This document shows, in pieces, positions 23,964 to 46,612 of a stretch of 64,000 nt of DNA (positions within the stretch are counted from its first letter, which is position 1; each line of letters begins with the position of its first letter). Position numbers and translations under genes: made by a program. The stretch lies in the NCBI GenBank assembly GCA_963744145.1, contig CAVUSO010000001.1:4640001-4704000 (forward strand). Direction: 5' to 3'. The notes beneath the pieces were generated by a model. It was not told where the DNA came from and did no database searches. It worked only from the letters and a program-made list of their open reading frames with translations. The stretch is from an uncultured cyanobacterium. Its GTDB lineage: Bacteria > Cyanobacteriota > Cyanobacteriia > Cyanobacteriales > CAWUOF01.

Positions 23964-24205
23964 TGGTTAGGTTTTGCTCGGATAATCTTAGGGCAAGTTG
24001 CTGACACTCTATCAAAGCATATTCAAGAAATTTGTAACTATTTTGTCAGTAAAACAACTAGTGGGAAAAGGTCAGAAATTAGTAACAAGATTAAATTGAT
24101 TATTAGACAAAGCTATGGGTTCAAAAGGTTTGATTATTTACGAGAAAAACTATTAGCTTGCTTATTTTAATAAGTCGTACTTATCACCACAGATCCGGGA
24201 GAGCC

Positions 24206-24537
24206 AAATTACCTTCTTCGTAGGATTTTCAATAAACTGTCTTTTCCAGTTCTGACACTGATATTTCTGTTTTTTATTATGAATTCTACCATTTTTGACC
24301 ACATGACTAGAACCACAATTAGGACAACTAAGGTTTTCGTTTGACATCCTGTAATAAACCGAGAAATTTGCTTAGATTATTTTCAGATTAGCAGATTTTT
24401 CTCCAAATTAGGATGAGGAAATTCTATCTACTTAATCTAAATTAATAATTATTATTAATAGTCAGACTTATAATTAAGTAATAACAAGTAAATTTGAACA
24501 GGAAAAATTTGCTCATCACTACATTTTTGGCACTACC
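24206..24537 (-). mobile_element. IS1-family remnant (terminal repeat plus InsA zinc-ribbon fragment) cut at the ISL3 end
   Basis: CPNCGSSHVVKNG...QKYQCQ; minus-strand end ggtagtgccaaaaatgtagtgatg at 24537. Confidence 0.75.
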
Positions 24538-24546
24538 GAATTGTCT

Positions 24547-24589
24547 TTCTCCCCATTCCCTGGTAGGGAAGGGGGTTGGGGGGTTAGGT
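24547..24589. repeat. Cyanobacterial intergenic palindromic repeat
   Basis: ctccccattccctggtagggaagggggttgggggttagg. Confidence 0.6.
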
Positions 24590-24594
24590 CTGAT

Positions 24595-26076
24595 TTAGAA
24601 GGGAGGTTCTTTCAACTCTGAATCTTCTTCCCATTTAGCTGGAGATTCCGCAGCACGTTTATTATTATGCTTGGGAACATCATAGAGAGAAGGAGATTTT
24701 TGTGCTTTGGTTTCACCATGACGACGCATAGATGTACCTTCCTCAGCAGTATCTTCTGCGATTACTTCATATAATATCGCTTGTTTATTTTGCTCCGTTC
24801 CTTTCCGAAGCACTCTCCCTAAACGTTGAATATATTCCCGTTGAGAACCAGTTCCAGATAACAGAATTGCTACTCTTGCATCGGGTACGTCAACACCCTC
24901 ATTTAAAACATGGGATGCGACTAAGGTTTTATATTCACCGCTCCGAAAACGAGTTAAAACTTGGTGACGTTCTTTGATTGGTGTTTGATGGGTAATTGCA
25001 GGGATTAGAAATTCTTGAGAAATCCGATAAACAGTAGCATTGTCTGCGGTAAAAATGAGAATACGTTCGGGGTGATGTTGGGATAGTAAATCAGCTAATA
25101 TGCGAATTTTGCTGCTAGTTCCCTGGGAGATTTCTTTAGCTTGTCGATGTGCTAACATCGCTCTTCTTCCCGCAGACGATCGCGCACTTGCTTGTACAAA
25201 TAATTGCCAACCTTCCATTTTCCCCAAGGAAATATGAGCGGTTCGCAAAAATTCATTACGAGTTTTAATTAGTTGATTATAGAGTTCTCGTTCTTGCTGG
25301 GATAGTTTAACCTTAATTTGGACAATTTTATGATCAGCTAAAGCTGCTCCAGCTAATTCTTCCGCAGTTTTCCGATAAACTTCTGGACCAATTAAAACCT
25401 GCAAATCTAAATGTTTCTGATCGGAACGTTCTGGTGTTGCTGTTAATCCTAATCGATAGGGTGCGATCGCATATTCGGCAATGACTCGGTTAAAATCTGT
25501 AGGTAAGTGGTGACATTCATCAAAAATCACTAAAGCATAACGATTTCCCAGGGATTCAGCATGGATTGCTGCACTATCATAGGTCGCGACCAAAATTGCA
25601 GTGCGATCGCGAGAACCTCCTCCTAATAATCCTATTTCTGCATCAGGAAAAGCCGCAACTAAATGAGCATACCATTGGTGCATTAAATCTAATGTTGGTA
25701 CTACGACTAGGGTACTACGAGGAGTAGCTTCCATAGCTAATTGTGCTAAATAAGTCTTACCCGCAGCTGTCGGAAGAACTACTACACCTTGTCGTCCCGC
25801 TTGTTTCCAAGCAGTTAAAGCTTCTTGTTGATGAGGATAGGGAGTCATTACTAAACTCGGTACGAGTTCTAAAGGGACAAATCCCTTTGCTTCATCAATA
25901 AAATTACTTCCCTCTGCTTGGAGGGTTTCTACCAATCTGCGATAGTTGATTGCTTCAATCCGAAATTTTTCGACCCGATCGTCCCATGTCGCAAATTCCA
26001 CCCAAGATTTGCCCCTCGGTGGTGGATGTAATAGTAGTGTACCCCCATGAAATGTTAATGTTGGTGTGCGAGCCAT
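24595..26076 (-). CDS. XPB/Rad25-like superfamily II helicase
   Basis: PYPHQQEAL, LPTAAGKT, DECHH, GLTAT, NEGVDVP, QRLGRVLR. Confidence 0.9.
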   Translation of the reverse strand: MARTPTLTFHGGTLLLHPPPRGKSWVEFATWDDRVEKFRIEAINYRRLVETLQAEGSNFIDEAKGFVPLELVPSLVMTPYPHQQEALTAWKQAGRQGVVVLPTAAGKTYLAQLAMEATPRSTLVVVPTLDLMHQWYAHLVAAFPDAEIGLLGGGSRDRTAILVATYDSAAIHAESLGNRYALVIFDECHHLPTDFNRVIAEYAIAPYRLGLTATPERSDQKHLDLQVLIGPEVYRKTAEELAGAALADHKIVQIKVKLSQQERELYNQLIKTRNEFLRTAHISLGKMEGWQLFVQASARSSAGRRAMLAHRQAKEISQGTSSKIRILADLLSQHHPERILIFTADNATVYRISQEFLIPAITHQTPIKERHQVLTRFRSGEYKTLVASHVLNEGVDVPDARVAILLSGTGSQREYIQRLGRVLRKGTEQNKQAILYEVIAEDTAEEGTSMRRHGETKAQKSPSLYDVPKHNNKRAAESPAKWEEDSELKEPPF

Positions 26077-26106
26077 CTGTTTAGTATAGCTGGAAACCAG
26101 ATCATA

Positions 26107-27342
26107 TTAATAGCGCGATCGCCACCTCCACCACAATCGACCACCAAAATAGCCGCAGATAATTCCCATTATTATACTTATTATTAATGATAATCCAAAA
26201 TTAAAAACTGCATTACTAGGGATCATAATTTCCTTACCTTCCTCAAGTTTTTTAGCAGGAAATGGTGTGATTACTTCAATTAAAGGACTAATCACCGAAG
26301 CGGTTGCTGAAGTAACACCGATCGCAATGCCAAAGGTGGCAATTTCTAATTGTAAATCGCGATCGCTCTGGATTTGCTTACTAGCTACCATTGCGCGTAA
26401 ATTATCAATCCAGGTATTCCACACTTTTACTCTCGATGTCAGAACATCAATGTCTTTTTCTACCTGGATTTGATATTTTTCTTGAGCAATTTGACTAAAA
26501 TCGTTTAGACAAATTAGTTCAGTATTTAGCTGTTCTTCGTTTCGAGCTTTAATTTCGATGCTATTTAAACGTTCTTTATAGTTGAATAAATTTATTTTAA
26601 TCGTCTGCTGTTGGATTTCTAAGTAAGTTTGATCAGCAATAAATTTAGATAAAGTTTGGAGATTTTGACTTAGTTCTATTTTGAGATTCTCTAAATTTTT
26701 ATCAATATGATGATTTACTGATAGGGTTTGACTACTAGATGGGAAAAAATTAGCTGGTAAATTGAGTTGTAAAGTGTTACTATAAGCCCAGAGGATTTTA
26801 TTGCGGTAATAAAATAAGTTAACCCAATCTTCATAGAATTTATTAATTTTTTCTAAGGTAGTTTGATTAGGGAAAATTATAATTACAATTCGACTATTTT
26901 TTTCGGTAGTTAAGTCTTGCCAATTTTGGGTAGGTTGCCAAATTTCAAAAATCTTTCCCCCCATAAATTCCCCTGGTGTGGGGTTTTGGGGACATTTTTC
27001 TCCAGAAAATGATTCGTAGATGTTTTTAGCTAGGATGGTAGTATCTTTTGGCTCAATATTTTCTGGTAAATATCCTATTAACATCCAAGTTTTTGTCAGC
27101 TCTGTGGTTGGATGAAATTTTGAGTTTATGTTTTTTTGAAAGTCTCGAAAACAGCTAATTGGTTGAGGAGTTGCTGATTCTGAAGATGCGATCGAATAGC
27201 AATATAAATCAGCTTTGACATCAGATAATGGCAATTGTATCCAAAAATAGGTTTCTCCTTTTTGTGGATGGTTATCTAGGTTTGGTTGGTGGTTAAAGTG
27301 ATAGGTAAATAAAAATAGATGGGGATATTTTAATTCATTCAT
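26107..27342 (-). CDS. Hypothetical protein: globular N-terminus, coiled coil, two C-terminal TM helices (TPR-CHAT-associated)
   Basis: 411 aa; IATFGIAIGVTSATASVI and FGLSLIISIIMGIICGYFG helices; basic WWRWRSRY tail. Confidence 0.8.
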   Translation of the reverse strand: MNELKYPHLFLFTYHFNHQPNLDNHPQKGETYFWIQLPLSDVKADLYCYSIASSESATPQPISCFRDFQKNINSKFHPTTELTKTWMLIGYLPENIEPKDTTILAKNIYESFSGEKCPQNPTPGEFMGGKIFEIWQPTQNWQDLTTEKNSRIVIIIFPNQTTLEKINKFYEDWVNLFYYRNKILWAYSNTLQLNLPANFFPSSSQTLSVNHHIDKNLENLKIELSQNLQTLSKFIADQTYLEIQQQTIKINLFNYKERLNSIEIKARNEEQLNTELICLNDFSQIAQEKYQIQVEKDIDVLTSRVKVWNTWIDNLRAMVASKQIQSDRDLQLEIATFGIAIGVTSATASVISPLIEVITPFPAKKLEEGKEIMIPSNAVFNFGLSLIISIIMGIICGYFGGRLWWRWRSRY

Positions 27343-27499
27343 TAGTTATACCGATTGATCTGATGTGTTTGTTATTTTTCATTGCTGTGGAGTGAATGAT
27401 GAGAGTGTTTTGTGTTCTGGTTTAATTGATAGTTAACGGATTGATCCCCCAGAGCCAACCTTAATAAGGGCTAGGGAGGATCTAAATCTTCAGACTCTA

Positions 27500-27985
27500 C
27501 TATACTATATGTATAGGGACAATCTCATATAGCACTTCAGATATTTTTTTCACCATCTTTTCGGCACTTATTTTCAATGTATCAGTTGACTTAAGCATTT
27601 TGAGCAATTCATCTACCTCTTTCGTAAATAATTCATCTACCTCTTTCTTAAATTCCTCTAACGAATCCCTTGACAAATCAGAATTTCTGATCTCCTTATT
27701 CTCACGTTCAGGTAATCGTTCACCTTCATCTAGAGGCACCACACACTTATTACGCGGCTGTTGGTGCTTCATTAACTTATCATAATAAGCCTGAAATACA
27801 TCATTTAAAGATTTATCCTGATAGATAATCTGACTAAGTTCCTCCATCGCTGAAGAAAAATCCTCTTCAATTCGGGAACTGAGTTGTTTAATTTCACTTT
27901 CTACCTTACTATCAAGAGCATCTACATGATATAGCGTCGCCAAAAAAGCCCGAAAAATCAATTCATCTTCTAAAGTGTAATTCAT
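27500..27985 (-). CDS. Small acidic helical protein downstream of TPR-CHAT
   Basis: 161-aa ORF starting 29 bp after the CHAT gene stop. Confidence 0.8.
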   Translation of the reverse strand: MNYTLEDELIFRAFLATLYHVDALDSKVESEIKQLSSRIEEDFSSAMEELSQIIYQDKSLNDVFQAYYDKLMKHQQPRNKCVVPLDEGERLPERENKEIRNSDLSRDSLEEFKKEVDELFTKEVDELLKMLKSTDTLKISAEKMVKKISEVLYEIVPIHIV

Positions 27986-28014
27986 AAAACAATTGGGTAA
28001 TAAATTTCATCCTC

Positions 28015-31000
28015 CTATTCCTCATTACTAGCTTCATAACCAGTAATGGTAAAACCTGCCCAATAATAGGGATCTGCATAGGTCTTGATTTCCATTATAT
28101 CAGGTCTTTGGCGGATTTGGTTGCAGCTACTTTGCAGTGCTCGCCAACATTTTGACCCTTCCGGGATAGTTGTCATCAATTGTTCATACCATTCGATGAG
28201 ATTGCTTTTGGTGACTGTCCTGAGCCAATTTTGCGCTTGTTTTAGAGCAACGGGTGGTGCATGATCTGGGAGATTTTCGTAAAATTTTATCATCAGATTA
28301 GCTGTGGCAATGTCCTCTACTTCCCATAGGGTACTCACCACATATTTCGCCCCTTTAGCTAAAAACCCACTCCCTAAACCGACGTATTCGTTGATTAAAT
28401 CTTGGGAACTGGTTAAACCAGTTTCGCACGCGGACAGACAAATGAGATTATATCTGTGAAAATCTAGTTCAAAGATGTCGGTGAGGGTGAGTAATTCTTT
28501 CTGAGTTAATTGTAATCCTGAGTCTTCGGGATTGTCGAAATTATGAATCCCATGTCCGGTAAAATGGAAGATATCCCTACCTTGTTGGAGCGCCACTATT
28601 ACTCTATTTTTATCAGCACTTTGTTGGTTGAGCAACTGATGGGTTTGGGGGTATTTGTTGATAATTAGATCGGATTCAGTAGCAGAATAAACCATAGTCC
28701 CACTGGGATCTTTCACCATCAATAGGTTAGTAGGTGTGCTGTTTTCCCTGGGGAATCTTCGGCTCATTTTGATGGTAGGTAGGTAAGTGATGGTAAAGTT
28801 TTGCTCCCAAAACAGATAATGGAGGGGTAGGAGATGGAAGTCACGATGGGGACTCAGGATCAGGTGGGTGATTCCAGTCAGATATTGCTGGCAAATTGTT
28901 TCTATATTGAGGATTTCCTTGAGGTTATTTAAACTGGTTTCTAGGTGTTTTTGCCAATCTTTGAGACTAGGGTTTTGAGCATCTTTGTGCTTATTTTTTC
29001 GGGAATTTTGATATTCGCTTTTCCATGTTTTCAACCATTCTTCTAGGGAGGACAGATGTTCCTTTCGATCCAATGTGAAGGGATAGATGTCTGTGGTAAT
29101 AACTTGGGGATCTCCTGAGTGTCTAATGATAAAGGTGGTGAGGGAAAATGGGCTTAGGTGCCAATAAATTATCGCTGTTTGGGGCTGATTTGTCAGTAAT
29201 CCTTGGATCTGGGCAAAAGTAGGGCTATCGATTTGGTCGGGATTTTGCCAACCTGTTTCCATCCATTTGAGAGATTGGTTTTTCCGTCTTTCCGCTGTTT
29301 CTAGAGCAAGGATTTGCTGTCCAGACTGAACTAATTGCTCAATCTTAAATTGGGAAAATGCGCTAAATTTGCGGTTGAATCGTAGTTTTATTTCTGCTGG
29401 AGTGTCATGATCTAACCTTAAATTCTCTAGTAGGTTAGTACCTTGATCAAGATATTCATCAGCTTGACTATCTCCTAAAGCGCGACAGACAATGATTAAT
29501 GCTTGTAAGACTTCTAGATAAGTCTCAGTAATTATATAATTCTTAGCAATAAGGGCAGATTTTAGGAATTCGCAGGCTTGTTCATAGCTAGCTTTGGCTT
29601 TACAGAAATATACTGACTGAAAATTTGTTCTTTTACCATATTTGTAATGTGCCTCGCCTTTTTGCTGATGCAATGTACCACAAGCTAGACGATAGTCAGG
29701 GTTACTTTCCTGATATTTCTTTAAGCCTTCATCCCAGTTTTTAATAGCTTCTTCGTAGCGATCGGAATCAAAAAACGCCAAACCTCGATTATTCCAAGAT
29801 TGCCAATCTTGATCTTTGGCAATATATAAGGCGCGGTCATAAGCGGCGATCGCCTCCTTGTATCTCCCTAAATGATAGAGGACAATGCCCCGTCCGCCAT
29901 GGGGAGCAGCGTAGTTGGGGTCTAGGGCGATGGCGCGGTCATAAGCCTCGATCGCCTCGTTATATCTCCCTAACTCACTGAGGACATTGCCCCGTCCGTG
30001 ATGGGAAGCGGTGATGTTGGGGTCTAGGGCGATGGCGCGGTCATAAGCCTCGATCGCCTCGTTATATCTCCCTAAATTAGCGAGGACATTGCCCCGTCCG
30101 TGATGGGAAGCGGCGTCGTTGGGGTCTAGGGCGATGGCGCGGTCATAAGCCTCGATCGCCTCGTTATATCTCCCTAACTCACTGAGGACATTGCCCCGTC
30201 CGTGATGGGAAGCGGCGTCGTTGGGGTCTAGGGCGATGGCGCGGTCAAAAGCCTCGATCGCCTCGTTATATCTCCCTAAATTAGCGAGGACATTGCCCCG
30301 TGCCGTATGGGGACGGGCGATGTTTGGGTCTAGGGCGATGGCGCGGTCATAAGCCTCGATCGCCTCGTTATATCTCCCTAACTCACTGAGGACATTGCCC
30401 CGTGCCCTATGGGGAGGGGCGATGTTGGGGTCTAGGGCGATAGCGCGGTCAAAAGCCTCGATCGCCTCGTTATATCTCCCTAAATTAGCGAGGACATTGC
30501 CCCGTGCCGTATGGGGACGGGCGATGTTTGGGTCTAGGGCGATGGCGCGGTCATAAGCCTCGATCGCCTCGTTATATCTCCCTAACTCACTGAGGACAGT
30601 GCCCCGTCCGTGATGGAAAGGGGCGATGTTGGGGTCTAGGGCGATGGCGCGGTCATAAGCCTCGATCGCCTCGTTATATCTCCCTAACTTACTGAGGACA
30701 GTGCCCCGTCCGTGATGGGGAGGGGCGATGTTGGGGTCTAGGGCGATGGCGCGGTCAAAAGCCTCGATCGCCTCGTTATATCTCCCTAACTCACTGAGGA
30801 CATTGCCCCGTCCGTGATGGGAAGCGGTGAAGTTGGGGTCTAGGGCGATGGCGCGGTCAAAAGCCTCGATCGCTCCTTTTAAATCCCCTGCATAGTAACG
30901 AGCTACCCCTTGATTATATAAATCTTTTGGATCTTCTCCTTCGTTCTTAGGTTTCCTTGCCAACAATTCTCGCCCAATCTTTCCCGCTATCTTCGATATT

Positions 31001-31344
31001 TTCTCGTAATTTGCCTCACTCAACAGTAACAGTCGCTCACCTAATTCTAAATTCAATTCAGGGGATGCAAGAACGCGATCGCCAAATTCTTGCAGCCATT
31101 TGTCCCAATCTATATTCTGATTTTTGATCAAAAACACTTTGAGCTGGACACGAATACCATCCAATTTCACACTTTGGAGGAATGGCAAAAATATCTGTTC
31201 GCACTCACTAAAAGAAGGTTCTGGATCTGGAGGTGGAGGTGTCTGGGGTGGTGGGGATTTGAGGAAAAGTTGCTTGACTCGCTGCCACAGTTGGCACAGT
31301 TTTTGCCAGATGCGTTGGAACATAGGAGAATCTGGTGAACTCAT
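28015..31344 (-). CDS. TPR-repeat plus CHAT (caspase-like) protease
   Basis: 34-aa TPR array; CHAT motifs LLPLH, HFTGHG, LSACETG, STLWEV, PYYWAGF. Confidence 0.93.
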   Translation of the reverse strand: MSSPDSPMFQRIWQKLCQLWQRVKQLFLKSPPPQTPPPPDPEPSFSECEQIFLPFLQSVKLDGIRVQLKVFLIKNQNIDWDKWLQEFGDRVLASPELNLELGERLLLLSEANYEKISKIAGKIGRELLARKPKNEGEDPKDLYNQGVARYYAGDLKGAIEAFDRAIALDPNFTASHHGRGNVLSELGRYNEAIEAFDRAIALDPNIAPPHHGRGTVLSKLGRYNEAIEAYDRAIALDPNIAPFHHGRGTVLSELGRYNEAIEAYDRAIALDPNIARPHTARGNVLANLGRYNEAIEAFDRAIALDPNIAPPHRARGNVLSELGRYNEAIEAYDRAIALDPNIARPHTARGNVLANLGRYNEAIEAFDRAIALDPNDAASHHGRGNVLSELGRYNEAIEAYDRAIALDPNDAASHHGRGNVLANLGRYNEAIEAYDRAIALDPNITASHHGRGNVLSELGRYNEAIEAYDRAIALDPNYAAPHGGRGIVLYHLGRYKEAIAAYDRALYIAKDQDWQSWNNRGLAFFDSDRYEEAIKNWDEGLKKYQESNPDYRLACGTLHQQKGEAHYKYGKRTNFQSVYFCKAKASYEQACEFLKSALIAKNYIITETYLEVLQALIIVCRALGDSQADEYLDQGTNLLENLRLDHDTPAEIKLRFNRKFSAFSQFKIEQLVQSGQQILALETAERRKNQSLKWMETGWQNPDQIDSPTFAQIQGLLTNQPQTAIIYWHLSPFSLTTFIIRHSGDPQVITTDIYPFTLDRKEHLSSLEEWLKTWKSEYQNSRKNKHKDAQNPSLKDWQKHLETSLNNLKEILNIETICQQYLTGITHLILSPHRDFHLLPLHYLFWEQNFTITYLPTIKMSRRFPRENSTPTNLLMVKDPSGTMVYSATESDLIINKYPQTHQLLNQQSADKNRVIVALQQGRDIFHFTGHGIHNFDNPEDSGLQLTQKELLTLTDIFELDFHRYNLICLSACETGLTSSQDLINEYVGLGSGFLAKGAKYVVSTLWEVEDIATANLMIKFYENLPDHAPPVALKQAQNWLRTVTKSNLIEWYEQLMTTIPEGSKCWRALQSSCNQIRQRPDIMEIKTYADPYYWAGFTITGYEASNEE
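29831..30873 (-). repeat. Ten 102-bp near-identical tandem repeats plus a partial copy (TPR array)
   Basis: gcgcggtc recurs every 102 bp from 29831 to 30851. Confidence 0.95.
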
Positions 31345-31385
31345 AAGAAAATATTAACAGAATTTTGTCCGGATTGGTAGGATTT

Positions 31386-31444
31386 GTAGGGGCGAGTTCA
31401 CCGATCAATTTTGTGACCAATCGATCACTATCATAACCCCGCCC
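31386..31444. repeat. GTAG REP-like element
   Basis: gtaggggcgagttcacc...aaccccgccc; similar to 59654-59712. Confidence 0.65.
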
Positions 31445-31490
31445 AACCAACACAGATCACTCACAATTAACATTAAATTACAAATTTATC

Positions 31491-31514
31491 GGACAGGCAA
31501 GATGCCTGTCCCAC
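31491..31514. repeat. REP-like palindrome ggacaggcaagatgcctgtcccac
   Basis: Also present twice at 50557-50621 and as the seed of the 46361 tandem repeat. Confidence 0.75.
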
Positions 31515-31756
31515 ACAATCTTACTGTACTTTATCAACAAGGAATGTGTTGTATTGACGGGATGATGGAGCGAGTTTCTAATATTGATTAGAGTAATTAA
31601 GGATTATTTGCGATCGCTTGATTCCAACTAGATATGGCTGAGAAATCGTCATAATTTAGTAGTCTTGACTGGCGATAAAATTCATGTTCTGATAAACTAA
31701 TATATGAGCGGAAAACCTGAATCTAACTATCAAATTGCTATCCCAGGAGAACCCAG

Positions 31757-32696
31757 ATGAGATTTATTAGTCCCAAAATTGATTATGCCTTTAAAAAAAT
31801 CTTCGGTTCGAGCCAAAGTGAACAAATTTTAATTAGTTTTCTGAATGCAATTATGTATAATGGGGAGAAAATCATTGAATCCCTCAATATTGTCAATCCC
31901 TATAATCCGGGTCAAGTGGTCAGTTTAAAGGAGTCTTATTTAGATGTAAAAGCGGTCTTAACCGATGGTTCAATAATTCTGATCGAAATGCAAATAGCTC
32001 GGGTGAGTGCCTTCAGTAAAAGAGTAATTTACAATGTGGGAAAAGCTTATACAAATCAATTAGGAATCGGGGAATATTATCCGGGTTTAACACCAGTAAT
32101 TGGAGTGACAATCACCGATTTTATAATGTTTCCTCAGACCCCAGAAGTCATCACTCAATTTGGGTTAGTGGAGCAGACCAAAAAATTTCCCTATCCCGAC
32201 CAAGAATTACAGTTCATTTTTGTGGAATTACCAAAATTTCAGAAACAACTATCAGAATTAGCTAACTTGAGGGAACAATGGATATATTTTCTGAAAGAAG
32301 CAGCAAGATTAGAGACAATTCCCCAGGAATTAGGTCAGGTAAGTGAAATCGAACTAGCTTTAAATATAGCGAATCAAGCCAATATGACTGTAGAGGAATT
32401 AGAAATAGTAGATAGAAGAGGAATGTTGTTACAAGATGAAAAAGGACGTTCTGACTTATGCTAGGGAAGAAGGTCGTGCTGAAGGTTTTACTGAAGGTCG
32501 TGCTGAAGGTCAAAGGTTGGGTGAACAACAATTGTTACTTCGTCAATTGCACAAGCGTTTTGGTGAATTACCAACTTCTATAACTCAACCAATTGAAAAC
32601 CTATCTATTTCCGATTTAATTAATTTAGGAGAAAATATTTTCGATTTCGATAGTCTCAGAGATTTGCAAGAATGGTTGGAACTTAGAGAAAACTAA
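31757..32696 (+). pseudogene. Rpn family PD-(D/E)XK nuclease copy 1, +1 frameshift near 32450
   Basis: aaaggacgttctgac versus aaaggwcgtctgac in the other four copies. Confidence 0.85.
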
Positions 32697-32936
32697 CAGA
32701 AATGTTCCTCTCGCTCCAAACCCAATCGGAATATCGACCGGGTGATGGAGCGAGTTTCTAATATTGATTAGAGTAATTAAGGATTATTCGCGATCGATTT
32801 AGCCAAACTAGATATTGCTGAGAAATCGTCATAATTTAGTAGTCTTGACTGGCGATAAAATTCATGTTCTGATAAACTAATATATGAGCAGAAAACCTGA
32901 ATCTAACTATCAAATTGCTATCCCAGGAGAACCCAG

Positions 32937-33863
32937 ATGAGATTTATTAGTCCCAAAATTGATTATGCCTTTAAAAAAATCTTCGGTTCGAGCCAAAGTG
33001 AACAAATTTTAATTAGTTTTCTGAATGCGATTATGTATAATGGGGAGAAAATCATTGAATCCCTCAATATTGTCAATCCCTATAATCCGGGTCAAGTGGT
33101 CAGTTTAAAGGAGTCTTATTTAGATGTAAAAGCGGTCTTAACCGATGGTTCAATAATTCTGATCGAAATGCAAATAGCGCGAGTGAGTGCCTTCAGTAAA
33201 AGAGTAATTTATAATGTGGGAAAAGCTTATACAAATCAATTAGGAATCGGGGAATATTATCCGGGTTTAACACCAGTAATTGGAGTGACAATCACCGATT
33301 TTATGATGTTTCCTCAGACCCCAGAAGTCATCACTCAATTTGGGTTGGTGGAGCAGACCAAAAAATTTCCCTATCCCGACCAAGAATTACAGTTCATTTT
33401 TGTGGAATTACCAAAATTTCAGAAACAACTATCAGAATTAGCTAACTTGAGGGAACAATGGATATATTTTCTGAAAGAAGCAGCAAGATTAGAGACAATT
33501 CCCCAGGAATTAGGTCAGGTAAGTGAAATCGAACTAGCTTTAAATATAGCGAATCAAGCCAATATGACTGTAGAGGAATTAGAAATAGTAGATAGAAGAG
33601 GAATGTTGTTACAAGATGAAAAAGGTCGTCTGACTTATGCTAGAGAAGAAGGTCGTGCTGAAGGTCGTGCTGAAGGTCAAAGGTTGGGGGAACAACAATT
33701 GTTACTTCGTCTATTGCACAAGCGTTTTGGTGAATTACCAACTTCTATAACTCAACCAATTGAAAACCTATCTATTCCCGATTTAATTAATTTAGGAGAA
33801 AATATTTTCGATTTCGATAGTCTCAGAGATTTGCAAGAATGGTTGGAACTTAGAGAAAACTAA
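32937..33863 (+). CDS. Rpn family PD-(D/E)XK nuclease/putative transposase with DUF4351-like C-terminus, copy 2
   Basis: DYAFKKIFG, LDVKA, IEMQ, FVELPKF, EGRAEG linker, LLRLLHKRFG...IFDF. Confidence 0.9.
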   Translation: MRFISPKIDYAFKKIFGSSQSEQILISFLNAIMYNGEKIIESLNIVNPYNPGQVVSLKESYLDVKAVLTDGSIILIEMQIARVSAFSKRVIYNVGKAYTNQLGIGEYYPGLTPVIGVTITDFMMFPQTPEVITQFGLVEQTKKFPYPDQELQFIFVELPKFQKQLSELANLREQWIYFLKEAARLETIPQELGQVSEIELALNIANQANMTVEELEIVDRRGMLLQDEKGRLTYAREEGRAEGRAEGQRLGEQQLLLRLLHKRFGELPTSITQPIENLSIPDLINLGENIFDFDSLRDLQEWLELREN

Positions 33864-34095
33864 CAGAAATGTTCCTCTCGCTCCAAACCCAATCGGAATA
33901 TCAACCGGGTGATGGAGCGAGTTTCTAATATTGATTAGAGTAATTAAGGATTATTTGCGATCGCTTGAATCAAACTAGATATTGCTGAGAAATCGTTATA
34001 ATCTGGTAGTCTTGACTGGCGATATAATTCATTTTCTGATAAACTAATTGATTAGCGGAAAACCTGAATCTAACTGCCATCCCAGGAGAAATCAG

Positions 34096-35058
34096 ATGAG
34101 ATTTATTAGTCCCAAAATTGATTATGCCTTTAAAAAAATCTTCGGTTCGAGCCAAAGTGAACAAATTTTAATTAGTTTTCTGAATGCGATTATGTATAAT
34201 GGGGAGAGAATCATTGAATCCCTCAATATTGTCAATCCCTATAATCCGGGTCAAGTGGTCAGCTTAAAGGAGTCTTATTTAGATGTAAAAGCGGTCTTAA
34301 CCGATGGTTCAATAATTCTGATCGAAATGCAAATAGCGCGAGTGAGTGCCTTCAGTAAAAGAGTAATTTATAATGTGGGAAAAGCTTATACAAATCAATT
34401 AGGAATCGGGGAATATTATCCGGGTTTAACACCAGTAATTGGAGTGACAATCACCGATTTTATAATGTTTCCTCAGACCCCAGAAGTCATCACTCAATTT
34501 GGGTTGGTGGAGCAGACCAAAAAATTTCCCTATCCCGACCAAGAATTACAGTTCATTTTTGTGGAATTACCAAAATTTCAGAAACAATTATCAGAATTAG
34601 CTAATTTGAGGGAACAATGGATATATTTTCTGAAAGAAGCAGCAAGATTAGAGACAATTCCCCAGGAATTAGGTCAGGTAAGTGAAATTGAACTAGCTTT
34701 AAATATAGCGAATCAAGCCAATATGACTGTAGAGGAATTAGAAATAGTAGATAGAAGAGGAATGTTGTTACAAGATGAAAAAGGTCGTCTGACTTATGCT
34801 AGGGAAGAAGGTCGTGCTGAAGGTCTTACTGAAGGTCGTGCTGAAGGTCGTGCTGAAGGTCGTGCTGAAGGTCAAAGGTTGGGGGAACAACAATTGTTAC
34901 TTCGTCTATTGCACAAGCGTTTTGGTGAATTACCAACTTCTATAACTCAACCAATTGAAAACCTATCTATTCCCGATTTAATTACTTTAGGAGAAAATAT
35001 TTTCGATTTCGATAGTCTCAGAGATTTGCAGCAATGGCTGGAACTTAGAGAAAACTAA
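34096..35058 (+). CDS. Rpn family nuclease, copy 3
   Basis: As copy 2; AGGAGA SD precedes ATG 34096. Confidence 0.9.
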   Translation: MRFISPKIDYAFKKIFGSSQSEQILISFLNAIMYNGERIIESLNIVNPYNPGQVVSLKESYLDVKAVLTDGSIILIEMQIARVSAFSKRVIYNVGKAYTNQLGIGEYYPGLTPVIGVTITDFIMFPQTPEVITQFGLVEQTKKFPYPDQELQFIFVELPKFQKQLSELANLREQWIYFLKEAARLETIPQELGQVSEIELALNIANQANMTVEELEIVDRRGMLLQDEKGRLTYAREEGRAEGLTEGRAEGRAEGRAEGQRLGEQQLLLRLLHKRFGELPTSITQPIENLSIPDLITLGENIFDFDSLRDLQQWLELREN

Positions 35059-35289
35059 CAGAAATGTTCCTCTCGCTCCAAACCCAATCGGAATATCGAC
35101 CGGGTGATGGAGCGAGTTGATCAGATTGATTAGAGTAATTAAGGATTATTTGCGATCGCTTGATTCCAACTAGATATTGCTGAGAAATCGTCATAATTTA
35201 GTAGTCTTGACCGGCGATAGAATTCATTTTCTGATAAACTAATTGATTAGCGGAAAACTGAATCTAAATGCCATCCCAGGAGAACTCAG

Positions 35290-36204
35290 ATGAGATTTAT
35301 TAGTCCCAAAATTGATTATGCCTTTAAAAAAATCTTTGGTTCGAGCCAAAGTGAACAAATTTTAATTAGTTTTCTGAATGCGATTATGTATAATGGGGAG
35401 AGAATCATTGAATCCCTCAATATTGTCAATCCCTATAATCCGGGTCAAGTGGTCAGCTTAAAGGAGTCTTATTTAGATGTAAAAGCGGTCTTAACAGATG
35501 GTTCAATAATTCTGATCGAAATGCAAATAGCGCGAGTGAGTGCCTTCAGTAAAAGAGTAATTTACAATGTGGGAAAAGCTTATACAAATCAATTAGGAAT
35601 CGGGGAATATTATCCAGGTTTAACACCAGTAATTGGAGTGACAATCACCGATTTTATGATGTTTCCTCAGACCCCAGAAGTCATCACTCAATTTGGGTTG
35701 GTGGAGCAGACCAAAAAATTTCCCTATCCCGACCAAGAATTACAGTTCATTTTTGTGGAATTACCAAAATTTCAGAAACAACTATCAGAATTAGCTAACT
35801 TGAGGGAACAATGGATATATTTTCTGAAAGAAGCAGCAAGATTAGAGACAATTCCCCAGGAATTAGGTCAGGTAAGTGAAATCGAACTAGCTTTAAATAT
35901 AGCGAATCAAGCCAATATGACCGTAGAGGAATTAGAAATAGTAGATAGAAGAGGAATGTTGTTACAAGATGAAAAAGGTCGTCTGACTTATGCTAGAGAA
36001 GAAGGTCGTGCTGAAGGTCAAAGGTTGGGTGAACAACAATTGTTACTTCGTCAATTGCACAAGCGTTTTGGTGAATTACCAACTTCTATAACTCAACCAA
36101 TTGAAAACCTATCTATTCCCGATTTAAATAATTTAGGAGAAAATATTTTCGATTTCGATAGTCTCAGAGATTTGCAGCAATGGCTGGAACTTAGAGAAAA
36201 CTAA
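35290..36204 (+). CDS. Rpn family nuclease, copy 4
   Basis: As copy 2; shortest linker. Confidence 0.9.
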   Translation: MRFISPKIDYAFKKIFGSSQSEQILISFLNAIMYNGERIIESLNIVNPYNPGQVVSLKESYLDVKAVLTDGSIILIEMQIARVSAFSKRVIYNVGKAYTNQLGIGEYYPGLTPVIGVTITDFMMFPQTPEVITQFGLVEQTKKFPYPDQELQFIFVELPKFQKQLSELANLREQWIYFLKEAARLETIPQELGQVSEIELALNIANQANMTVEELEIVDRRGMLLQDEKGRLTYAREEGRAEGQRLGEQQLLLRQLHKRFGELPTSITQPIENLSIPDLNNLGENIFDFDSLRDLQQWLELREN

Positions 36205-36436
36205 CATAAATGTTCCTCTCGCTCCAAACTCAATCGGAATATCAACCGCGTGATGGAGCGAGTTTCTAATATTGATTAGAGTAATTAAGGATTATTTGCG
36301 ATCGCTTGATTCCAACTAAATATTGCTGAGAAATCGTCATAATTTAGTAGTCTTGACTGGCGATAGAATTCATTTTCTGATAAACTAATATATGAGCGGA
36401 AAACCTGAATCTGACTGTTATCATAGGAGAACCCAG

Positions 36437-37387
36437 ATGAGATTTATTAGTCCCAAAATTGATTATGCCTTTAAAAAAATCTTCGGTTCGAGCCAAAGTG
36501 AACAAATTTTAATTAGTTTTCTGAATGCGATTATGTATAATGGGGAGAAAATCATTGAATCCCTCAATATTGTCAATCCCTATAATCCGGGTCAAGTGGT
36601 CAGTTTAAAGGAGTCTTATTTAGATGTAAAAGCGGTCTTAACCGATGGTTCAATAATTCTGATCGAAATGCAAATAGCGCGAGTGAGTGCCTTCAGTAAA
36701 AGAGTAATTTACAATGTGGGAAAAGCTTATACAAATCAATTAGGAATCGGGGAATATTATCCGGGTTTAACACCAGTAATTGGAGTGACAATCACCGATT
36801 TTATGATGTTTCCTCAGACCCCAGAAGTCATCACTCAATTTGGGTTAGTGGAGCAGACCAAAAAATTTCCCTATCCCGACCAAGAATTACAGTTCATTTT
36901 TGTGGAATTACCAAAATTTCAGAAACAACTATCAGAATTAGCTAATGTGAGGGAACAATGGATATATTTTCTGAAAGAAGCCGCAAGATTAGAGACAATT
37001 CCCCAGGAATTAAGTCAGGTAAGTGAAATCGAACTAGCTTTAAATATAGCGAATCAAGCCAATATGACTGTAGAGGAATTAGAAATAGTAGATAGAAGAG
37101 GAATGTTGTTACAAGATGAAAAAGGACGTCTGACTTATGCTAGAGAAGAAGGTCGTACTGAAGGTCGCGCTGAAGGTCGTGCTGAAGGTCGCGCTGAAGG
37201 TCAAAGATTGGGTGAACAACAATTGTTACTTCGCCTATTGCACAAGCGTTTTGGTGAATTACCAACTTCTATAACTCAACCAATTGAAAACCTATCTATT
37301 CCCGATTTAATTAATTTAGGAGAAAATATTTTCGATTTCGATAGTCTCAGAGATTTGCAGCAATGGCTGGAACTTAGAGAAAACTAA
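36437..37387 (+). CDS. Rpn family nuclease, copy 5
   Basis: As copy 2; AGGAGA SD precedes ATG 36437. Confidence 0.9.
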   Translation: MRFISPKIDYAFKKIFGSSQSEQILISFLNAIMYNGEKIIESLNIVNPYNPGQVVSLKESYLDVKAVLTDGSIILIEMQIARVSAFSKRVIYNVGKAYTNQLGIGEYYPGLTPVIGVTITDFMMFPQTPEVITQFGLVEQTKKFPYPDQELQFIFVELPKFQKQLSELANVREQWIYFLKEAARLETIPQELSQVSEIELALNIANQANMTVEELEIVDRRGMLLQDEKGRLTYAREEGRTEGRAEGRAEGRAEGQRLGEQQLLLRLLHKRFGELPTSITQPIENLSIPDLINLGENIFDFDSLRDLQQWLELREN

Positions 37388-46356: not shown

Positions 46357-46360
46357 GACA

Positions 46361-46612
46361 GACATCTTGTCTGTCAAATAAATTGAAAGACATCTTGTCT
46401 GTCAAATAAATTGAAAGACATCTTGTCTGTCAAATAAATTGAAAGACATCTTGTCTGTCAAATAAATTGAAAGACATCTTGTCTGTCAAATAAATTGAAA
46501 GACATCTTGTCTGTCAAATAAATTGAAAGACATCTTGTCTGTCAAATAAATTGAAAGACATCTTGTCTGTCAAATAAATTGAAAGACATCTTGTCTGTCA
46601 AATAAATTGAAA
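46361..46612 (+). repeat. Perfect tandem repeat, 9 x 28 bp
   Basis: gacatcttgtctgtcaaataaattgaaa nine times, with no spacers. Confidence 0.97.

Follow-up and report, generated by a model that had tools for sequence, protein, structure and literature searches.

In a 64,000-nucleotide stretch of DNA from an uncultured cyanobacterium (assembly GCA_963744145.1, contig CAVUSO010000001.1, positions 4,640,001 to 4,704,000; hereafter the window), we study one gene, which encodes a caspase-like CHAT protease fused to an array of tetratricopeptide repeats (TPRs). We find that the repeat units of this array are nearly identical in DNA while a small set of codons differs between them, mostly at positions through which TPR proteins are reported to contact ligands. 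The best overall explanation, to which we give a probability of roughly 0.72, is a TPR array that evolves in concert, whose binding groove is under selection and which serves as the sensing part of a protease. The locus lies within a 7.63-Mb contig of an assembly that totals 7.7 Mb (39.4% GC). The 1109-residue protein begins with an N-terminal domain that matches no family, continues with the TPR array and a stretch of helices, and ends in the CHAT protease (Table 1). Pfam recognizes TPR_1 in 12 stretches (E = 9.6e-112 for the whole protein) and CHAT (PF12770) with E = 9.1e-40 (137.3 bits against a cut-off of 24, residues 806-1102, profile positions 5-288 of 289). Across 60 aligned family sequences, residues H927, H931, H934 and C973, which stand in the motifs HFTGHG and SACETG, never vary; among the histidines we infer His931 (28552-28554) to be the likely catalytic partner of Cys973 (28426-28428).

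Repeat units and their differences

Tandem Repeats Finder places the array at 29830-30873, with a period of 102, 10.2 copies, 91% matches, 0% indels and a score of 1641. An earlier note on this DNA, made from the letters alone, had described ten 102-bp units with variation clustered in a short string of residues after the DPN motif, and reading the minus strand in frame returns exactly the strings it listed: FTASHHG, IAPPHHG, IAPFHHG, IARPHTA, IAPPHRA, IARPHTA, DAASHHG twice, ITASHHG and YAAPHGG. The further alternations that it named (N/T/I, SE/SK/AN/YH and F/Y) are all present in the in-frame units. Over the nine core units (residues 172-477, 306 residues), mean identity is 91.5% in DNA and 84.1% in protein, with a protein range of 76.5-100%, and the 19 variable nucleotide sites are distributed over codon positions 1, 2 and 3 as 7, 8 and 4. 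To count changes, we join the distinct alleles of each codon in a minimum-spanning tree, which avoids counting duplicated units twice. By this count the nine core units differ by 18.5 non-synonymous and 2.5 synonymous changes, which bears out the mostly non-synonymous variation noticed at first sight.

The array is also richer in GC than its flanks, again as described before, with 0.545-0.595 against 0.36-0.44 in 200-bp windows, and 0.59 against 0.41 in the remainder of the gene. Because the GC content at third codon positions (GC3) is raised as well (0.658 in the array, 0.388 in the remaining gene), amino-acid composition does not account for the GC-rich array.

The cyanobacterial HIP1 palindrome GCGATCGC occurs in 7760 copies genome-wide. 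Its core, CGATCG, stands in each unit of the array (29830-30873), within the codons for E-A-I-E, at a density of 10.5 per kb compared with 1.9 per kb for the genome, and GCGATCGC is also found in the consensus unit of several other arrays of this genome.

Variable positions and the TPR contact surface

A TPR is a 34-residue helix-turn-helix with small or hydrophobic consensus residues (G8, A20, A27, P32), and successive repeats stack into a superhelix. No gap is needed to align the units studied here with consensus TPR proteins of known structure (9qhb, 8bu0), which sets the register such that the residue following DPN is TPR position 34. An AlphaFold model made with 60 family sequences has a mean predicted local distance difference test (pLDDT) score of 81.5, with most 10-residue blocks of the TPR region between 85 and 97, and puts helix A at positions 1-13 and helix B at positions 17-30. 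The modelled TPR part superposes on the TPR superhelix of O-GlcNAc transferase (1w3b_A) with a template modelling (TM) score of 0.87 of the target and a root-mean-square deviation (rmsd) of 3.1 A over 382 columns. Pfam, the consensus alignment and the paired helices in each unit all place the array in the TPR family, with its 34-residue unit and superhelix.

With the register fixed, the variable sites can be compared with positions known from other proteins. According to Magliery and Regan (2005; PMC1261162), positions 2, 5, 9, 12, 13, 33 and 34 vary most in TPRs generally and belong to the concave face, and HOP is described as binding peptides through positions 2, 5, 6, 9, 12 and 13 (PMC1261162). 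We therefore take as our a-priori set the eight published concave-face or ligand-contact positions 2, 5, 6, 9, 12, 13, 33 and 34. Ten positions carry different amino acids among the nine core units (34, 1, 2, 3, 5, 6, 9, 12, 13 and 24), and seven of these ten fall in the eight-position set (hypergeometric P = 1.6e-4). The check that the earlier note had proposed, mapping the variable sites onto the TPR groove, thus gives seven of eight published contact positions as variable, the mapping being made by register.

Rates of change at contact codons

The codons of the a-priori set carry 14.5 non-synonymous and 0.5 synonymous changes; their non-synonymous rate of 0.754 per site compares with a synonymous rate of 0.10 per site over the unit, a ratio of about 7.4 (binomial P = 0.0013). 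At the other 26 codons there are 4 non-synonymous and 2 synonymous changes (0.069 against 0.10 per site, ratio about 0.7). Recounting with one event per allele gives P = 0.0031 for the a-priori excess, and the conservative count of one event per linked block gives P = 0.012. A pairwise Nei-Gojobori calculation over the nine units returns a ratio of non-synonymous to synonymous proportions (pN/pS) of 9.0 at the variable codons and 0.26 elsewhere. The per-codon comparison suggested at the outset comes out as an excess at the contact codons, and the proposal of diversifying selection on ligand-facing helix-A residues gains support from the register, from the overlap with contact positions and from the codon rates.

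Exchange among units

For each of the nine core units, the most similar unit belongs to this protein itself (0.88-1.00), and the best match to a unit of any other protein is 0.59 in a set of 723 units from 120 family proteins. The edge units show the reverse: the unit at residue 138 reaches 0.65 with another protein and 0.47 with its own, and the unit at residue 513 reaches 0.74 with other proteins and 0.29 with its own. This is the classical picture of interior units homogenized between anchored ends, and it supports the concerted evolution that had been inferred from the letters.

Variants are also re-dealt between units. All four combinations of alleles are present in 41 of 136 biallelic site pairs, and the fully linked block AGTGAG/GCTAAT, which comprises four differences, sits on differing upstream backgrounds. 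Since the same block occurs on different haplotypes, it must have moved by exchange between units and not by repeated mutation, and the earlier suggestion that variants reassort stands on both observations.

Relatives and the genome's repertoire of arrays

The C-terminal half of the protein has 1052 homologues at E <= 1e-20, the closest among the matches listed being 56% identical; those with names belong to filamentous genera such as Microcoleus, Tychonema and Kamptonema. Four or more 34-residue units of high identity occur in 59 of 120 listed homologues, and in the other 58 the within-array variability peaks at positions 2, 9, 12, 13 and 34 (Spearman 0.57 with the present array). Among 11 loci homologous to this one in other genera, at least 7 have 102-bp arrays of four copies or more. 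Four of the relatives' arrays pass a filter of at least five units at 80% or more identity to the array consensus, and we counted codon changes in all four. The excess at a-priori codons recurs in two of these four, both of them young: L002 with a ratio of 7.5 (P = 7.7e-5) and L006 with 4.1 (P = 9e-4). (L numbers are our labels for loci.)

Within the genome itself, a search with Tandem Repeats Finder for indel-free arrays with five or more copies, 85% or more matches and a period that lies within 60-200 and is a multiple of three yields 20 non-overlapping arrays, of which 18 have an open frame. Pfam was run on 13 host open reading frames (ORFs); two noncoding arrays, two short ORFs and one WD40 ORF of uncertain frame were left out. 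CHAT is C-terminal in 9 of the 13, and in 10 of 14 when the present gene is included, while the other proteins are TIR-WD40 (L028), LRR-Roc-COR (L020), WD40 (L018) or TPR only. The nine further array-CHAT proteins (L016, L017, L021, L022, L023, L025, L026, L027 and L029) have units of 40, 42, 46 or 48 residues, and no NACHT or NB-ARC is among the Pfam matches listed for them.

GC3 is higher in the array than in the remaining ORF for 15 of 16 coding arrays of this genome (0.39-0.66 compared with 0.26-0.38), the present array being the most extreme, and biased gene conversion is one possibility for the cause. As a general cause of GC-rich arrays, we reject GC-biased conversion, given that six relatives' arrays are mixed, with three above and three below their flanks.

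Alternative explanations

The alternative that survives best is a neutral history, in which one or two units were recently amplified in tandem and the variable positions are simply the least constrained surface, with neither diversifying selection nor a rapid recognition role. We consider this unlikely. There are signs of recent duplication, in that units 274 and 342 are one synonymous base apart and units 376 and 410 one block apart; positions 2, 9, 12, 13 and 34 are reported as the most variable across TPRs of all kinds (PMC1261162); the non-synonymous excess over the whole unit is insignificant (P = 0.21); and two older arrays of relatives have ratios near 1 (L003, 1.18; L011, 0.78). However, a neutral site should change at about the synonymous rate, and the a-priori codons change about seven times faster (P = 0.0013 to 0.012, according to how events are counted), the same excess is present in two independent young arrays, and alleles that lie 2-4 nucleotides apart (CAC/ACG, AGTGAG/GCTAAT) occur in units whose synonymous sites are almost untouched.

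The insignificant whole-unit test and the two older arrays weigh against selection on the groove, and several further points belong beside them. The a-priori set does not include variable positions 1, 3 and 24, and it does include position 33, which is invariant. The variable residues are expected to face the ligand groove on grounds of register and helix periodicity, not of distances in the model. The synonymous baseline consists of 2.5 changes only, and whatever causes the GC3 of 0.66 may depress it and so make the ratio too high. Every comparison is made among the units of a single allele in one genome, the search for homologues having returned no second genome of the same species; different units could each fit another part of a single long endogenous partner, and strains need not have diversified. 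Finally, PADLOC gives the protease weak, partial matches only.

A housekeeping scaffold, in the manner of the development or division protease HetF, is quite improbable to our minds; here each unit would be tuned to its own part of one fixed cellular partner, and the differences would be old and stable. HetF, a CHAT protease of Anabaena, is reported to cleave a cellular substrate, PatU3 (PMC9457339), and the single genome examined leaves room for such a role. But an old, tuned array would not keep 91.5% DNA identity with almost no synonymous divergence, and reassorted blocks would not be expected in it. Nor would one expect relatives whose last 450 residues link them at 95% identity or more to differ in length as they do, from 677 to 1098 residues (a number of the records being incomplete). 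The presence in one genome of at least ten CHAT genes with near-identical arrays fits a repertoire better.

The earlier note had also remarked that the variable codons look like the products of a diversity-generating retroelement (DGR), in which an error-prone reverse transcriptase (RT) copies an adenine-rich template into the array and leaves NNC/NNT codons. This part of the note does not hold up, and we give the idea a very slim chance. Several variable codons do fit (TTC/ATC/GAC/TAC, GCT/CCT/CGT, TCC/CCC/TTC, AGT/GCT/TAT), and DGRs are described as common in multicellular cyanobacteria, where they diversify putative sensors, some with CHAT (PMC10907252). The fit is explained by the fact that any excess of non-synonymous over synonymous change yields this look, and codon 5 (CAC/ACG/AGG) violates the NNC rule. 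A blastn search with two units against the whole 7.7-Mb assembly matches only the present locus. When the ten units are made into an nhmmer profile, the units themselves reach 90-112 bits and the strongest match outside the locus, a different TPR gene, reaches 32.7 bits, so there is no template copy genome-wide. The three RVT_1 (PF00078) matches of the genome, all at least 340 kb away, are a Cas1-adjacent RT, Drt5 and a group II intron fragment. None of the three looks like a DGR-type RT, a verdict that draws on the alternative assignments together with the missing template, as a dedicated DGR RT model may be absent from the library. In addition, the repeats near the first RT show every substitution type and not changes at adenines only, identical variants recur across several units of the array, and the DGR targets named in the available text of PMC10907252 are C-type-lectin folds, not TPRs.

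Of these RTs, the Cas1-adjacent one is a group-II-like RT directly upstream of cas1, with an IS4 transposase before it (G000:C1:5091612-5093698, equivalent to L013:5612-7698), and the second is a full-length Drt5 antiviral reverse transcriptase that scores 659 bits, over its cut-off (G000:C1:3189607-3191088, L014:3608-5089).

That unit number or order was invented or collapsed in assembly is hardly credible. Repeats at 91% identity do assemble poorly, and no contig of the sole public run with the locus, a short-read soil metagenome that is possibly the source sample and so not fully independent, spans the array, with the consequence that copy number and unit order depend solely on the 7.63-Mb contig; a second sequencing run has a short part of the locus only, and no RNA run with the locus is listed. 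Yet the locus lies in a contig of that great length, both array-flank junctions and four internal unit-specific pieces are recovered in the metagenome contigs (seven of eight pieces without a differing letter, and 30351-30451 with one), the frame is open through all units, and comparable arrays exist in the other-genus loci counted above.

Proposed mechanism and comparison with known systems

Returning to the concertedly evolving array with a selected groove, we propose that it forms the ligand-binding TPR superhelix of a cytoplasmic TPR-CHAT protease in a filamentous cyanobacterium. Unequal crossing-over and gene conversion would keep the interior units near-identical, and the same events would shuffle variant blocks and alter the number of units, while selection would keep the concave helix-A codons (34, 2, 5, 6, 9, 12 and 13, with neighbors 1 and 3) different between units. 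The outcome would be a constant scaffold with a variable binding groove. By analogy with the CHAT proteases beside gasdermins, with Csx29 and with fungal NOD-like receptor (NLR) repeats, a partner bound in the groove may control the fused protease, which would then act on a downstream target, the first candidate being the conserved membrane-anchored product of a neighboring gene, p411. As to role, a sensor within a conflict or cell-death system seems most likely.

The fungal parallel concerns the repeats. In NLRs of Podospora anserina, TPR, ANK and WD repeats are reported to be near-identical within a gene, with a few positively selected positions that lie on the concave surface in TPRs, and Dyrka et al. 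(2014) invoke concerted evolution via repeat-unit shuffling, near-identical repeats with few fast-changing contact residues being the proposed route by which specificity is renewed (PMC4986451). The array described here resembles these repeats in its near-identical units, its few variable concave-face positions and its unit shuffling. That paper sets a threshold of more than 85% identity over at least 100 residues, and the present units, with 84.1% in protein over 306 residues, lie at the border of it; by counting, the array shows the sign of positive selection at a few expected surface positions, of the kind that the paper describes (ratio about 7.4, seven of eight variable). Unlike in the fungal proteins, the effector is a C-terminal CHAT protease in a cyanobacterial protein. 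The fungal TPRs are described as modelled on the kinesin light chain structure, whereas the cyanobacterial units are classical 34-residue TPRs, and polymorphism in repeat number between strains is established in Podospora (PMC4986451), whereas the present array is known from one genome.

For bacteria, WD and TPR repeats of NLR-like proteins with 80-90% internal identity have been noted in filamentous cyanobacteria and actinobacteria, with the suggestion of rapid diversification (Dyrka 2020; bioRxiv 10.1101/2020.01.06.895854). That remark concerns NB-ARC and NACHT proteins, and the available text of the preprint holds no per-site analysis, with zero occurrences of 'hypervariab' and 'positive selection'. 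The present protein, by contrast, lacks a nucleotide-binding domain: none of the NLR type is among the best 25 of 35 Pfam matches for the whole protein, and none appears when residues 1-137 or 539-1109 are scanned separately with E up to 1.

For the protease, Csx29 of the type III-E CRISPR effector Craspase is described as combining N-terminal TPRs with CHAT and as having its activity switched by partner binding (PMC9935389, PMC9729208). Our protein shares the TPRs and C-terminal CHAT with it, and its CHAT part matches the Csx29 model NF041237 at E = 5.5e-19, but with 68.5 bits against a 300-bit cut-off and over the CHAT part only. No Cas protein, Cas7-11 included, is found among the 13 neighboring ORFs scanned. 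We know of no near-identical repeats in Csx29.

CHAT fused to TPR, LRR, WD40 or NACHT is reported next to bacterial gasdermins, where a direct coupling of recognition to cleavage has been proposed (Johnson et al.; bioRxiv 10.1101/2021.06.07.447441). The present locus likewise has a repeat-fused CHAT protease with a membrane-protein neighbor, but p411 matches no gasdermin family and has a C-terminal transmembrane helix; searches of Pfam, NCBIfam and PADLOC with p411 and with the small ORF p161 give no gasdermin, nor is one among the weak Pfam matches of p161 at E up to 1. The DGR-diversified antigen sensors of Dore et al. (2024; PMC10907252) are similar in joining a variable recognition module to a conflict-type protein, some with CHAT, and differ in that the variable module here is a TPR array and not a C-type-lectin fold, with neither template nor DGR-like RT found.

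The principle is not new: it is in print for NLRs of fungi (PMC4986451), and a preprint mentions it for NLR-type proteins of bacteria (bioRxiv 10.1101/2020.01.06.895854). Our literature search found the pattern for these NLR-type proteins and no per-site analysis of TPR-CHAT proteins, though papers outside the search could exist. What is added here is the bias of the genome's near-identical arrays toward CHAT, the conserved p411 neighbor and the raised GC3. The signature is bacterial, is shared by several genera and recurs in some ten genes of this one genome, and its occurrence on a protease without a nucleotide-binding switch suggests that the variable-receptor strategy is older and more modular than the NLR architecture. 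With the odds against it, one may go further and picture filamentous cyanobacteria keeping a repertoire of sensor-proteases without a nucleotide-binding domain, their grooves quickly re-dealt by unit shuffling and at least one subfamily hard-wired to the membrane protein p411 as executioner, as a one-protein immune or allorecognition system that joins recognition to cleavage and arose in parallel to the fungal NLRs. The locus supplies objects for testing such ideas: defined groove residues, clear putative catalytic residues and a conserved candidate membrane target.

Features of the gene and its neighborhood

Table 1. The TPR-CHAT gene, its parts and the genes downstream of it (positions in the window; aa, amino-acid residues)
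Feature	Position	Strand	Remarks
TPR-CHAT gene, 1109 aa	28015..31344	-	sole long ORF across the array; Pfam TPR_1 and CHAT PF12770
N-terminal domain, aa 1-137	30934..31344	-	family-less; many residues near-invariant across 60 family members
Degenerate leading TPR unit, aa 138-171	30832..30933	-	scaffold fits the second half, not the first half
Nine core 102-bp units, aa 172-477	29914..30831	-	near-identical scaffold, variable codons at expected concave-face positions
Tenth, diverged unit, aa 478-511	29812..29913	-	C-terminal half off the scaffold; best within-protein identity 0.59
Further TPR-like/helical region, about aa 512-720	29185..29811	-	AlphaFold helix pairs up to about residue 697
CHAT caspase-like protease domain, aa 806-1102	28039..28929	-	Pfam and invariant His/Cys motifs
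Small ORF p161, 161 aa	27500..27985	-	between the protease and p411; starts 29 bp downstream of the protease
p411, 411 aa	26107..27342	-	conserved neighbor, C-terminal membrane helix
XPB/Rad25-like helicase (XPB_DRD, ResIII, Helicase_C)	24595-26076	-	30 bp downstream of p411

The N-terminal domain has zero Pfam matches, even at E up to 1, and no homology to p411 (best E 2.2). A paralogue that is 62% identical (C1:3075170-3075535) adjoins a paralogue of p411.

In 6 of 11 relatives' loci, the gene for the CHAT homologue has a homologue of p411 just downstream, and further copies stand beside two paralogous CHAT genes of this genome. The genes form a module of a TPR-CHAT protein, a small ORF and a membrane-helix protein of about 410-490 residues (26107-27985; also L032:4216-6041, L033:2896-4368 and L031:2653-5680), and a third copy of the module consists of a p411-like gene and the protein with the N-terminal domain alone, the 62% identical one. 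Pfam, NCBIfam and PADLOC give no match for p411, and in a protein atlas it falls in unnamed cyanobacterial clusters only. Its model combines an alpha/beta domain with a long hairpin of helices and ends in a helix at 378-410. The top Foldseek matches listed, at ranks 1-44, are CorA or Mrs2 channels, with 18 matches at E <= 0.001, but at a TM score of about 0.2 and an rmsd of about 18 A, and in a wide VIA-align search, where hairpins of a generic helical kind prevail, Mrs2 takes rank 14 (Z 8.5, rmsd 8.2). A CorA-like layout of the modelled p411 is thus a weak lead only. Predicting a complex of the CHAT half (residues 540-1109) with p411 gives a score of 0.01 against a mark of 0.32, which is evidence neither way.

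For p161 there is no match in Pfam (E <= 0.001) or NCBIfam and one weak match in PADLOC (E = 0.0031). It has a weak match in one relative's locus (L008, E = 2.8e-6), and the genome's own paralogous module has a 137-residue ORF at the position of p161 with a faint likeness only (E = 0.2). The helicase matches the PADLOC PbeA models with 178 bits, and its position is not conserved in the relatives' loci or in the paralogous modules. A scan of 24000-32000 gives 24 promoter-like and 12 terminator-like sites, against 19.2 +/- 4.2 and 7.4 +/- 3.2 in shuffled sequence, both within about 1.5 standard deviations of the shuffled means, and so offers no usable signal.

Elsewhere in the window, a perfect tandem array of nine 28-bp units (46360-46612, 100% matches) has no spacers and hence is not a CRISPR array. 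On the plus strand, five tandem paralogues of a PD-(D/E)XK 'transposase' (PDDEXK_2) occupy 31757-37387, four of them with DUF4351; each copy contains a run of the 12-bp repeat GAAGGTCGTGCT that differs in length from copy to copy, and the first copy is split into two ORFs.

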